Source: an uncultured Chlamydiae bacterium (GTDB lineage: Bacteria; Chlamydiota; Chlamydiia; Chlamydiales; JAJFMA01). Taken from it: 64,000 nt of DNA. The translations under genes and the position numbers were made by a program. The stretch spans positions 416,001-480,000 of the forward strand of contig CAVQMM010000001.1 of the NCBI GenBank assembly GCA_963713615.1, in the 5' to 3' direction. The notes beneath the pieces were generated by a model. That model was not told the DNA's origin. It saw only the letters and a list, made by a program, of their open reading frames with translations, and made no database searches. Shown piece by piece: positions 16,662-20,223 of this stretch (the first letter of the stretch is position 1; each line of letters opens with the position of its first letter).

Positions 16662-17510
16662 ATTTCCATGATTGTTTACTTAGCAAAAGTCCATAGCATA
16701 TCATAATTATTAATTTTTGTAAATCAGTTAAGGCGAAGTTTTTGTGTTATTAATTTTTATTAATTGAAGTGATTGAAGGGGATTGGCAATGTTTGACTTC
16801 GTCCATGATGTCCATTAGACCTATCCTACATATCATGCATATCCATGAATCATGTTTTTTTGTTTGCCGCGTCCATACTGTCCATATGAGGTAATTTCAG
16901 AAGTATTTGGGCCCTCATGGATCGATTCTTTGGAAAAAAATCACTGTTTTTTGTGAGAAGGCGATTCTAGAGAGCTTAAGTGGTATGGCACTATCCAGTC
17001 TGGAAAGACAGGCTTTTCTCCCTTCCCAGGCCCGAAGGGTCGATATTGCAACAGGCCATGGCATCGCCATGGTATATGCCAGGAAGGGATTTCGCAGTCT
17101 GAAGGACTGCTACAAGACGCCAGTTTACAAACACCATTTATGCATGCGCTTTATGGCAGCCCTACAGGCTGCTAAAACCGTTTTGGCATATACCATGGCG
17201 ATGCCCCATAGGCCTCAACCTAACAGGTCTTTTGAGCTTATATCTCAATGACTTAGGACTTCACAATCGTATCTCGGCGCGCAGCGCTTTGGAGTGCGGT
17301 CGCTTGCGACCGCTTTTCGTTCCTTGGGACGGCAATGCTAAACGGCATTGTATGGATTCGTCGAAGGCTGCATGTACTAACTATTTTACCCTTAGGGAAT
17401 TATAGTGATGCCGTTGCACACGACCGTCGCAAGGAACCCAAAGCGGTCGCAAGGTAAGCGTCAATTGAAGCCACCTTTTTCGTAATTCCGCGAGGTTCTA
17501 AGTTTTCTCC

Positions 17511-18092
17511 ATGACCCTAACCATGGAGATACTAATGGATTTCAAAAGGAAGCGTTCTGAGTGGGCTCGACGCATAGACCAATGGATGGCGAGCGGTCAG
17601 AGTGGCCGCAGGTGGTGCCTAGAGAACAATATAAGCTACCAGCAGCTCTTGTACTGGTACCAACGCTTTAAAGTTAGCCCGCCCGACCACATTTCCTCGA
17701 CGGGTTGGATAGACATTACCCTGCCCGAGCTCAAGCTTTCGCTTGATCAGAAGAGCGTCTATCTAACCCTAAAGTCTGCGAGCAAAACTCTGAGGTCGTC
17801 ATATCAGAAAAACAAGGGTGTCTTTCTCTATCAAGAGCCGATCGATATGCGAAAGGGATTTGAGTGCTTGAGCAATCTTGTTGACAGTTCGTTCTCGGGC
17901 GAATTTACCTGCGGGGCCTACTTCGTTTTTTTAAATCGTCGTAGAAATCTAGTGAAGGTCTTTTACTGGGATGGTAATGGTCATGCCGTCTGGTACAAGC
18001 GACTTGAAAAAGGAAGTTTTCGCAATGGAAGCATTCCAGATTCCGCTATCGATCGTCGAGAATTTCTAATGTTGTTGGAGAGTAGTCATTGA
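17511..18092 (+). CDS. tnpB: IS66 accessory protein, TnpA-TnpB fusion
   Basis: N-half SGQSGRRWCLENNISYQQLLYW (TnpA-like HTH); C-half PIDMRKGF...FVFLNRRRNLVKVFYWDGNG...KRLEKG (IS66 TnpB). Confidence 0.85.
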   Translation: MTLTMEILMDFKRKRSEWARRIDQWMASGQSGRRWCLENNISYQQLLYWYQRFKVSPPDHISSTGWIDITLPELKLSLDQKSVYLTLKSASKTLRSSYQKNKGVFLYQEPIDMRKGFECLSNLVDSSFSGEFTCGAYFVFLNRRRNLVKVFYWDGNGHAVWYKRLEKGSFRNGSIPDSAIDRREFLMLLESSH

Positions 18093-18136
18093 GCCTAAAA
18101 TCCTAAAAACAATGTGCATTTTATTAGATAAAATAC

Positions 18137-18165
18137 TTGATAATAGAGGGGGTCTGTGATATGAT
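18137..18165 (+). promoter_or_regulatory. Sigma70/sigma66-type promoter immediately upstream of tnpC
   Basis: TTGATA-17 bp-TATGAT with extended -10 TG; ATG begins at 18175. Confidence 0.5.
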
Positions 18166-18174
18166 TTAGAGCAT

Positions 18175-19719
18175 ATGGAAACCTCAACACTATCACTAGA
18201 ACAGCTTCAATCGGAAATTTATTCCCTGCGAAATGAGAATAGCTTTCTCAAGGAGCAGCTTGAATGGTTTAGGCGTCAGATTTTTGGGAAACGTTCGGAA
18301 AAAGTAGTCGACGATGGCGGTCAACAACTCTACCTGGAAGGTTTCGAAAATCTTGGTTCCGAAGAGCAAAAAGAGACAATAAATGTGCCTGCTCATCGAC
18401 GGGTTAAGCAGGGGCGCAATGGCAAAGATAAAATTACGCTTCCAGACAATATTCCCGTTCAACGCTGTATTTTAGATTTGCCAGAGGATCAAAAAGTTTG
18501 CCCTACAACGGGTGAAGCCCTCGTCAAAATTGGCGAAGAAGTCACTCACAAAATAGCGCATACGCCAGGTAGCTACTACGTCAAGGAGCTAGTACGTCCC
18601 AAGTATGCATGTAGAGCACATAGTGAAGAGGGCGTTTTTATCGCAGATTTACCAGATAGCATTTTTCCTCGCTGTCAAGCCGATGAGAGTCTTTTAGCCA
18701 GTGTGATCGTGAAAAAATTCGCCGATCACCTTCCTTTATTTCGTCAATCGGAAATCTTAGCTCGCGAGGGCATTCTCATCAGCCGACAAATACTTTGCAA
18801 GTGGGTAATGCGCTGTGGATATGCCTTAAAGGCGCTATATGAAGAAATGATTGCTCGCGTGCTCAGCAGCAACAATGTTTTTGTGGACGAATCTCCTGTG
18901 GACATGCTTGTCCCTGGTAAGGGAAAGGTGCACCAGGCTTTTATGTGGGTGATCGTTGGAGGGCAGGAAAAAAATCCGCCTTATCGAGTCTATCATTTTC
19001 GCACGGACCGCTGCCACAAGCATGCTGTGGAAATACTAGCTGGATATAAAGGTGTTGTCCATTCGGATAAATATGGAGCCTATGAAGCACTGGCTAATAA
19101 GAAGCAATTCACTTGGTGTCCATGCTGGAGTCACATTCGGCGCAAGTTTTTCGACGCTGTAGGTGGCGATAAAAAATTTGTTAGCTGGGTACTGCGCAAG
19201 ATAAAATATCTATTTATGTTAGAGAGAGTTGCTTGGGAACGTTCTCCAGAGGAACGTCTGCGGATAAGACAAGAGAAAGAAGCTCCAATAATAGATGAGC
19301 TGACTGCACGCATCAAGGACCGGCTGGTTAATGGCAAGGCTCTTCCCAAATCGAATCTAAGGGAGGCTCTAGGCTATTATTGCAGCTTAATTCCCCATCT
19401 GAAAAACTACACCCAACATGCATTTGCGCGTCTCGACAACAATGTAGCGGAGCGAGCGATACGCCCTCTAGCTATTGGCCGCAAGAACTGGATGTTTATT
19501 GGAAGCGAGGAGGGTGGGGAAGCTTCCGCCGTACTGCTAAGCCTGGTACAGACCTGCCGCGCGATAGGAGTCAACCCCCACGAATACCTAGAGGATGTGA
19601 TGAGGCGCCTGCCAGCCCATAATTCTCAAAAACTTCACGAGCTTCTGCCCGACGCTTGGGCTGCCGCCAGGCGACAAGCAAAGGCCTCATCCACCTCATC
19701 AGCCCCCACTGCCGAATAA
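18175..19719 (+). CDS. tnpC: IS66 transposase TnpC
   Basis: RRQIFGKRSEK, KFADHLPLFRQ, VDESP, SDKYGAY, CWSHIRRKF, DNNVAERAIRPLAIGRKNW. Confidence 0.95.
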   Translation: METSTLSLEQLQSEIYSLRNENSFLKEQLEWFRRQIFGKRSEKVVDDGGQQLYLEGFENLGSEEQKETINVPAHRRVKQGRNGKDKITLPDNIPVQRCILDLPEDQKVCPTTGEALVKIGEEVTHKIAHTPGSYYVKELVRPKYACRAHSEEGVFIADLPDSIFPRCQADESLLASVIVKKFADHLPLFRQSEILAREGILISRQILCKWVMRCGYALKALYEEMIARVLSSNNVFVDESPVDMLVPGKGKVHQAFMWVIVGGQEKNPPYRVYHFRTDRCHKHAVEILAGYKGVVHSDKYGAYEALANKKQFTWCPCWSHIRRKFFDAVGGDKKFVSWVLRKIKYLFMLERVAWERSPEERLRIRQEKEAPIIDELTARIKDRLVNGKALPKSNLREALGYYCSLIPHLKNYTQHAFARLDNNVAERAIRPLAIGRKNWMFIGSEEGGEASAVLLSLVQTCRAIGVNPHEYLEDVMRRLPAHNSQKLHELLPDAWAAARRQAKASSTSSAPTAE

Positions 19720-19986
19720 ATCGCCAGATGGCCTCAATTGACGCTTACGTCGCAAGCGACCGCACTCCAAAGCGCTGCGCGCCGAGATACGATTGTTAGG
19801 CTTAGGTTGAGGCCTATGTGGCGATGCCCTGGCCTGTTGCAATATCGACCCTTCGGGCCTGGGAAGTGATAAAAGCCTGTGTCCACTCCAGATAGTGCCA
19901 TACTGCCTGAGCTTTCTAGAATCGCCTACTAGCCAAAAAAGATAACCTTTTTTCCCAAGGATCGATTCTCAAGGGCTCAAATAATT

Positions 19987-20146
19987 GGCCTTGTTCGACT
20001 TTTCGCGCAGTTTTCGGTCGGCTGCGAGGCGCCCATCTGCAGCATTCGCCTCCTCGGCAATAGCTAGCGCTATTCCCTCGTCGTCGACTGCTGCATCTGG
20101 GACCTCTCGCCTGACCGAAATTCTGCCCGGAAAGCCGAACAAGGCC
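19987..20146. mobile_element. 160-bp MITE (TIR GGCCTTGTTCG) with 8-bp target duplication AAATAATT
   Basis: Duplication at 19979-19986 and 20147-20154; diverged copy of the same length at 48535-48694. Confidence 0.8.
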
Positions 20147-20223
20147 AAATAATTTTGCAATTACCTCATATGGACGAAGCCAAACGGGCCAGGGGTAAAT
20201 CCCCTGAGCCCGCTTGCTAAGAG

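Follow-up and report, generated by a model that had tools for sequence, protein, structure and literature searches.

Locus and layers

The window analysed here is a stretch of 64,000 nucleotides (C1:416001-480000) from the genome of an uncultured Chlamydiae bacterium, which comprises 3.97 Mb in 3 contigs with a completeness of 99.1%. Positions without a contig name refer to the window. At 16888-20167 it contains a nest of MITEs (miniature inverted-repeat transposable elements), paired repetitive extragenic palindromic (REP) sequences known as REPINs, and an insertion sequence (IS) of the IS66 family. The locus is a genuine six-layer nest of ~3.3 kb, and parts of it recur across the genome. From the outside inwards, the layers are 9-bp GGAC arrays, MITE A, the hairpin element D, MITE B, REPIN C, and IS66 (Table 1), which is one layer deeper than described in an earlier note made from the letters of the window alone. 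With a probability of roughly 0.78, the shells A and B carry hairpins (D and C, respectively) derived from Y1 and REP-associated tyrosine transposase (RAYT) genes, and thereby multiply the exact target of the next DDE element.

Table 1. Elements of the nest and related copies in the window (TIR, terminal inverted repeat; ORF, open reading frame)
Feature	Position	Strand	Remarks
E, host site	16870-16887	none	GTCC/GGAC low-complexity repeat
A, MITE shell	16888-20167	none	~17-bp TIRs, IS1182/IS5-like; 4-bp duplication
D, ~230-bp REPIN-like cargo of A	17019-19866 (bounds approximate)	none	resembles fused Y1 gene ends
B, 309-bp MITE	17207-19818	none	17-bp IS4/IS231-type TIRs
C, 231-bp REPIN, cargo of B	17263-19796	none	two inverted REPs and a spacer
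IS66-family element, 2295 bp	17454-19748	+	8-bp duplication 17446-17453 / 19749-19756
Fused tnpA-tnpB ORF, 193 aa	17511-18092	+	last TnpB residues of relatives lie in another frame
tnpC, DDE transposase, 514 aa	18175-19719	+	NF033517, 356 bits against a cut-off of 180
160-bp MITE	19987-20146	none	8-bp duplication; in right arm of A; untargeted
A end > D > B > C	53921-54554	none	junctions present; no IS66, no second A end
C-type REPIN, different spacer	36517-36784	none	followed by B2-type end 36750-36765 and C-REP remnant, to 36784
Tandem array, five A+D units	60526-62848	none	43-bp GGAC/GTCC spacer common to two other arrays of the genome

All the nest junctions named in the earlier note are present, and the duplications it gave for IS66, B (11 bp, 17196-17206 / 19819-19829), and the 160-bp MITE are verified. 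The limits of A were given as 16880-20175, of which the outer 8 bases on each side belong to the target. This target comprises GTCC/GGAC half-sites and the duplication of A, the 4-bp ATAT at 16884-16887 and 20168-20171, with GGAC at 20172-20175 after the right copy. A was also taken for a single element, and it is instead a composite of a TIR shell and the separate hairpin element D. The long inverted arms described for A exist at this copy, where both arms are L1-type (16888-17018 and ~19867-20167), but in 93 of the 112 paired A copies the two arms are unlike and have nothing but the TIR in common, whereas 7 copies carry a pair of L1-type arms as here (the end-type classifier pooled L1a and L1b arms, and only the joint L1 count was used). 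Within D, the left hairpin (17056-17072) is empty and the right one is interrupted by B; within C, the left hairpin (17296-17313) is intact and the right one is interrupted by IS66.

Removing the layers in silico restores the elements beneath them. Excision of IS66 leaves the 309-bp B, of which 307/309 bases match the B at 54181-54489. Excision of B leaves a core that differs from an array unit by one substitution over the 220 bases compared. This substitution sits in the 11-bp B duplication and occurs in its two copies alike, as expected of a true target duplication. Junctions of IS66 with the left C REP and with the right C REP, an IS1634 end in C, and empty C are present in contigs of other public peat and soil short-read runs, of which 6 of the 23 listed were examined. 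The IS66-into-C junctions are therefore not an artefact of one assembly; one of the runs could be the source sample. Rfam gave two microRNA-family matches far under the gathering score, which are taken as hairpin noise.

Two of the simpler states proposed for the same window need correction. The nesting of A, B, and C at 53919-54553 is as described, except that the second A end is missing. The supposed solitary C at 36517-36730 is a C with a different spacer that has an end of the B type and the remnant of a REP after it; free C-type REPINs do occur, at 46 loci of the genome.

Insertion of IS66 and IS1634 into the C hairpin

The genome holds 18 full copies of the IS66 element. For seventeen of them the insertion point is the middle of a C hairpin, and 16 of these have an 8-bp duplication, as do 17 of the 18 copies overall. 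B-borne C carries 13 of them, in both REPs and in both orientations, and 4 more occupy C-type REPs with another spacer. One C at C1:1677671 carries two IS66 copies. The single copy outside C hairpins sits at a site that keeps an S-T-N4-A-S core. Twelve of the B-borne insertions lie in a B whose duplication is intact, and these represent 9 configurations; identical IS haplotypes occur in different hosts, and the IS haplotype is uncoupled from the host haplotype. Of the 375 intact C hairpins, 167 are B-borne and receive 13 of the 17 IS66 insertions (odds ratio 4, p=0.012).

A second insertion sequence uses the same repeat. IS1634 (NF033559, 290 against a cut-off of 100) occupies another fixed position in this C REP in 8/8 copies, with a 6-bp duplication in 7 of the 8, and none of its copies is in the window. 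One of the eight is at C1:1118142-1120019 (L001). A 545-aa transposase found between B ends was considered as the B parent and rejected, as it belongs to a separate 1878-bp IS1634 inserted in C.

Elements of the IS66 family (IS679/IS866 type) have GTAA ends and an 8-bp duplication, and carry separate tnpA and tnpB genes plus TnpC. The element of the nest resembles them in its ends, duplication length, and TnpA/TnpB/TnpC content, and in addition to NF033517, its TnpC matches PF03050, PF13817, PF13007, and PF13005. In contrast, its tnpA and tnpB form one ORF of 193-195 aa in 18/18 copies and its insertion is site-specific, whereas in relatives with a TnpC identity of 47-64% the two ORFs are separate and the targets unrelated. 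No tnpA-tnpB fusion was found in 34 related loci with a TnpB match. Because it departs from the separate ORFs of the family, the element is treated as a variant and is not excluded from the family. The IS66 family is not known for target specificity, and the related chlamydial IS66 elements examined here insert at unrelated sites. Within this genome, another IS66 family occupies unrelated sites in 3/3 resolved of its 6 copies. The targets are likewise unrelated for relatives from two near-complete genomes (63-64% TnpC identity; 5/5 copies in G134 and 4/5 in G167), and the fifth G167 copy adjoins a partial C-like motif. The fused TnpA-TnpB is a candidate reason for the specificity of this IS66 as compared with its unspecific relatives.

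An IS66 end beside a C-type REP was found in none of 201 and none of 201 further genomes, the second set apparently being of the same phylum again, with a search pattern that recovers 16 sites in the own genome. Since IS copies often remain unassembled, 0/402 genome searches does not mean that the junction is absent.

Insertion of B into the D hairpin

B is flanked by D hairpin sequence on both sides in 83 of 95 pairs. Its duplication is exactly 11 bp in 71 pairs, comprising 8 different strings, and 10 bp in 3. Variant bases in the D targets are copied into both B duplications. The four possible placements of B by hairpin and orientation are all used, with 20, 18, 16, and 14 cases among 68 assignable ones, and one D at C1:1015135 holds two B. 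Arm inversions could inflate these placement counts, but neither the use of both hairpins nor the copied variants. A second B subfamily has a different C cargo and is inserted in C REPs with a 10-bp duplication. The GGG(N)5CCC target of IS231A corresponds to the ancestral centre of the D hairpin.

The B end matches the IS231-subgroup signature CAT-------AA--TAA exactly, and the duplication length agrees as well (Table 1 of PMC2266710). In other genomes, the termini of B match autonomous ISs of a known DDE family, and those of A match autonomous elements that probably belong to one. For B, at least 97 stretches of genome contigs matched its TIR and 80 of them were examined. Among the matches listed, elements of 1.41-1.54 kb with the B TIR encode IS4 transposases, five of which (L055, L051, L043, L069, and L103) pass NF033592 (164-226 against 115) and contain the Y..R...E motif. 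IS4 parents with the B TIR occur in one Parachlamydiaceae-labelled, two planctomycete-labelled, and one Methylovulum genome, and the B TIR is present in 4/300 other genomes. IS4 relatives also land in repeats. In G309, 17/17 listed ends share one repeat, and 4/5 copies in G311 lie within a hexamer repeat. Landing sites of the B family elsewhere have a hairpin z below -2 in 20/83 cases as compared with 9/83 random sites and 1/83 A-family sites, which is a modest difference.

As side observations among the listed matches, the IS4 clade with the B TIR (L040-L119, L346-L375) occurs in records labelled with many phyla. Its IS copies and MITEs are often inserted in hairpin repeats or tandem repeats of the respective genome, and their duplications measure 9 to ~20 bp.

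Origin of the C and D hairpins

The D and C hairpins likely derive from the ends of Y1 and RAYT genes, as their neighbourhoods in this and other genomes suggest. The claim that no mobilising enzyme is visible is right for the window, whereas Y1 genes with C and D repeats lie elsewhere in the genome. For C, this is a RAYT at C1:3256588-3257115 (NF047646, 83.9 against a cut-off of 80), which is flanked by 3+3 inverted C REPs. The C motif adjoins 11 of 14 homologous RAYT loci in other genomes and 0/24 loci of the D-type Y1 gene. The C hairpin has a folding z of -2.3; it is without a GTAG/GTGG foot, has GGAGT 5' of the stem, and is classed as a non-canonical REP. The 46 free C-type REPINs have many different spacers, and poly-C runs are expanded in the spacers of those at C1:1077138, 1820238, and 1829454. 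In contrast, the spacer of the C in B, taken at an identity of 95% or more, is found inside B in 83/83 copies, and its free relatives are 75-87% identical. As near-identical C exists only inside B, the C in B represents a single capture that was amplified by B. A B without C was not found among the 95 pairs.

The probable counterpart for D is the Y1 gene at C1:3243391-3243840, which is followed by D-like arrays with spacers 74-81% identical. The D hairpin adjoins 11/11 of its closest homologues, 1/13 distant ones, and 0/14 RAYT loci, and close homologues (L304 and L308, for example) have inverted D-type copies at both ends. The Y1 protein of this genome does not pass the RAYT model NF047646 (22.4 against 80) but passes NF033573 (57.6 against 55). 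Its motifs DHVH, WQ, and Y---Q-HH are those of subclass 1.2 in the accessible part of PMC6006769, where the table enters no REP for Y1 genes of this subclass. Near-identical D lies inside A except for 3 copies away from any A end. D is almost confined to A and is thus cargo that was captured once and amplified by A.

Two further observations concern these repeats. Among 179 intact D hairpins, a minority form with paired stem changes accounts for 18 as compared with 147 of the majority form, and only 2 are half-changed. It is the minority form that agrees with the hairpin next to the Y1 homologues, and the studied locus carries a half-changed site. A second Y1 gene of the subclass 1.2 type (C1:3872948-3873382, L004) has a third long inverted repeat type on both flanks.

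Shell A, the GGAC arrays, and the 160-bp MITE

GGAC/GTCC lies within 15 bp of both ends in 78/112 A copies, as compared with 1.0% of random sites. Duplications of 4-5 bp flank 49/112 A copies in this genome. At least 122 stretches of metagenome contigs matched the A TIR and 80 of them were examined; among the matches listed, many relatives have 4-bp duplications, and the A TIR also bounds autonomous elements of 1447-1510 bp that encode a transposase with DUF772 and DDE domains. The autonomous partners combine DUF772 with DDE_Tnp_1; their best model is NF033551 at 70-86 bits, below its cut-off of 270 (IS1182), and IS5 models are also below cut-off.

The chromosome contains 95 GGAC array clusters, 29 of which are beside an A end. 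The same GGAC 9-mer arrays flank two TIGR04258 four-helix-bundle genes, the two four-helix-bundle suffix genes at C1:1850843 and C1:3217661 (L301 and L302) being bracketed by them in inverted orientation.

The 160-bp MITE in the right arm of A belongs to families of 13 and 117 copies with 8-bp duplications. Its autonomous partner at C1:1074398-1076015 (L345) has the same TIRs around a DUF6399 protein, which is evidence that DUF6399 is a transposase. IS1595 was considered as the parent and rejected, since there is no PF12762 match and the parent is the DUF6399 element. Empty sites fall in an open frame in 1/47 cases for A and in 2/12 and 10/106 for the untargeted MITEs, as compared with 59% for random sites.

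Genome-wide census and relative ages

Besides the 18 full IS66 copies, the genome holds 95 paired B and 112 paired A, and with these copy numbers the nest is not a chance pattern. By content, the 112 paired A comprise 46 with D only, 44 with D and B, 11 with D, B, and IS66, 1 with two B, 1 with B and IS1634, 4 that hold a C-type REPIN but lack B, and 5 without either cargo. The A-D modules span ~114 kb, or 2.9% of the genome. On average, A arms diverge from their consensus by 1.5-2.5%, the D spacer by 0.85%, B by 0.39%, and both IS66 and IS1634 by 0.1%, and this drop from A to IS66 matches the nesting order.

The ordered hierarchy proposed in the earlier note thus holds genome-wide, with two repeated site-specific links, namely B into D and IS66 into C. 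These composites do not trace to one ancestral event, as is evident from the use of all four B placements, the double B, and the IS66 insertions. In relatives, only short REP-sized or TIR-sized matches to the composite were found, in 6/40 genomes. Tandem arrays of 5-9 A units occur in the window (60526-62848) and at C1:1173286, C1:2273505, and C1:2600817, and an identical 43-bp spacer in three arrays suggests that arrays were copied as units.

Surroundings of the nest

The nest is flanked by a gene for a 3619-aa protein on one side and by a glycoside hydrolase 9 gene on the other. The 3619-aa protein (5802-16661, minus strand), whose upstream region adjoins the nest, has only DUF3638 and a weak ResIII match. 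Two tandem paralogous ORFs of 747 and 736 aa with 80% DNA identity lie at 181-4725, the first without a Pfam match. Palindromic repeat families unrelated to A-D occur at 29638-29714, 39118-39493, 48041-48367, and 44348-44510.

Proposed mechanism and alternatives

B-into-D and IS-into-C are repeated, base-precise insertions, and the spread of each shell likely multiplied the exact target of the next DDE element. The cascade may have begun with two Y1 enzymes that spread free REPINs slowly. An IS1182/IS5-like MITE would then have captured one D, and an IS4/IS231-type MITE one C. DDE transposases now gone from the assembly would have amplified these MITEs in trans, A first and B later. The B transposase presumably recognised the palindromic 11-bp centre of the D hairpin, and the resident IS66 and IS1634 would recognise the C REP. 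IS66 most likely reads a double-stranded palindrome centred on the stem, plus REP context.

Several observations weigh against this reading. The 99.1%-complete assembly lacks the transposases that would be the parents of A and B, though B is only ~0.4% diverged. The own-genome parent search gave no IS4 above cut-off, no PF13751, no tblastn match to the parent proteins, and no profile match, and none of the DDE_Tnp_1 groups examined is bounded by A or B ends. An empty allele of the studied locus was not seen in the public runs, where coverage of the unique flanks is thin. A duplication of 4-5 bp is found in only the 49 A copies given above (tandem-array units being counted among the 112), and 21 of the 95 B pairs have none. 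Recombination or conversion among copies is therefore frequent and inflates the counts of independent configurations. The own D-type Y1 gene has repeats downstream only, with none in 700 bp upstream. Finally, the 12-bp consensus of the IS66 target discussed below was built from the same sites on which it is tested, and both the targeting by IS66 and the activity of the Y1 proteins are read from sequence.

The alternatives differ in which links of the cascade they concern. The earlier note supposed that the elements use one another as safe landing sites. In a strict form of this idea, every layer is independently mobile, C (into B) and D (into A) among them, and repeatedly chooses the next as a safe site. 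This is very unlikely. Landing is supported for B in D and for the ISs in C, whereas C in B and D in A are captured cargo. C-into-B is largely refuted by the 83/83 near-identical spacers inside B and the lack of an empty B. The free C-type REPIN loci, the A shells with a C-type REPIN or with neither cargo, and the second B subfamily in C REPs favour some independence, and together they mean that capture occurred several times. The supposed benefit of safety is not supported, because the untargeted MITE is likewise mostly intergenic (10/106 in frames) and safety needs no targeting. Least credible of all is random insertion combined with purifying selection and gene conversion, in which founder composites were copied by recombination. 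The common arm swapping and absent duplications, as well as the identical-spacer tandem arrays at three loci, are what it would produce. On the other hand, the insertion sites are base-precise and symmetric, in both REPs and both orientations, with double insertions and with target variants in both duplications. Moreover, the probability of 17/18 IS66 copies at the hairpin position is ~1e-67 if copies are independent and random, and both the second IS66 family (3/3 resolved) and the 160-bp MITE in the same genome are at unrelated sites.

A narrower alternative concerns the last link only and fits with all other steps of the cascade described above. IS66 may simply prefer a short palindrome that coincides with the REP stem, in which case REP structure or context and the TnpA-TnpB fusion would be irrelevant. 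We regard this as possible, if somewhat doubtful. The 12-bp palindromic consensus of its targets has 525 chromosomal sites, of which 364 are within C REPs, and the outlier copy with its S-T-N4-A-S core points the same way. Given the consensus alone, however, 17/17 insertions in REPs has P=0.002, and a relaxed consensus that includes the outlier gives P=9e-8. Selection against genic non-REP sites could close this gap. The consensus accounts for much, but not all, of the site bias of IS66.

It is also conceivable, but unlikely, that B (and A) was not recently orphaned but continues to be mobilised by a transposase that the cell population has and the assembly lacks, for example on a plasmid or in a minority strain. 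The uniformity of the B copies and an assembly in 3 contigs are in line with this. However, the B end leads into a different interior in no contig, among the matches listed from four public runs, and the two small contigs have no parent match. An even more far-reaching version of the proposed cascade is rather improbable. It would be a self-feeding system of five mobile DNA kinds with MITE-borne REPINs as target factories, and its IS66 would be the first site-specific one, having become so within this lineage through fusion of TnpA and TnpB into a target-selecting factor.

Relation to known systems

Each part of the nest belongs to a described class; what is new is the chain of six layers ordered by age, together with an IS66 that is site-specific and has its accessory genes fused. 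Several ISs are known to target REPs, and some of them (IS621, ISPa11, ISPpu9/10, and ISRm19) presumably belong to the IS110 family. The accessible part of PMC1525189 lists IS1397, ISKpn1, ISPsy8 (IS3), IS621, ISPa11, ISPpu9/10, ISRm19, and ISRm22 (IS4). The families given there are IS3, IS110, IS4, IS256, and IS5, and this part does not mention IS66 or IS1634. REP targeting by ISs is stated in general terms in the available portions of PMC3184786 and bioRxiv 2021.07.10.451892. The ISs in C resemble these elements in that all or nearly all copies sit at one REP base, often the palindrome axis. In contrast, REP targets are common here to two autonomous ISs and two subfamilies of MITEs, and many of these targets are MITE-borne.

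Similar to the REPIN-RAYT systems and REPtrons in the accessible parts of PMC6006769 and bioRxiv 2021.07.10.451892, C and D have inverted REP pairs, variable spacers, and a diverse free population, and C has a low-copy, repeat-flanked Y1 gene. Unlike them, C lacks the GTAG/GTGG foot, and near-identical C and D mostly owe their numbers to amplification within DDE MITEs and not to Y1. B is similar to IS231, as far as the latter is described in the part of PMC2266710 at hand, in its end signature, the 10-12-bp duplication, the YREK motif of autonomous relatives, and target specificity. IS231 is described there as nearly confined to Firmicutes, whereas the relatives of B are in Chlamydiae-, Planctomycetota-, and Gammaproteobacteria-labelled records and others, in REP-like hairpins, and no autonomous copy is in this genome. 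The nest was likened to the bacterial interspersed mosaic elements (BIMEs) of enterobacteria, which are also composite, intergenic, REP-based, and struck by ISs. BIMEs are side-by-side mosaics, whereas the present elements are nested with a duplication at each DDE layer and do not have the BIME arrangement. No description of REP-targeting IS66 or IS1634, or of a MITE-borne REPIN cascade, was found in the accessible parts of the searched literature, which was drawn mostly from outside subscription journals and without ISfinder or supplements.

Significance

In the nest, mobile elements that create niches for one another can be counted and ordered by age. MITE B, by carrying them, accounts for about 45% of the C hairpins that are intact in the genome, and these receive most IS66 insertions. 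IS66 and IS1634 join the families with REP-targeting members, and a Y1 subclass listed as REP-less is now tied to a conserved flanking hairpin. MITE A, in turn, uses four-helix-bundle GGAC repeats as a landing zone. Moreover, the targeted fused-ORF IS66 and its untargeted separate-ORF relatives form a natural contrast, through which the part played by the accessory proteins in choosing a target becomes directly testable.

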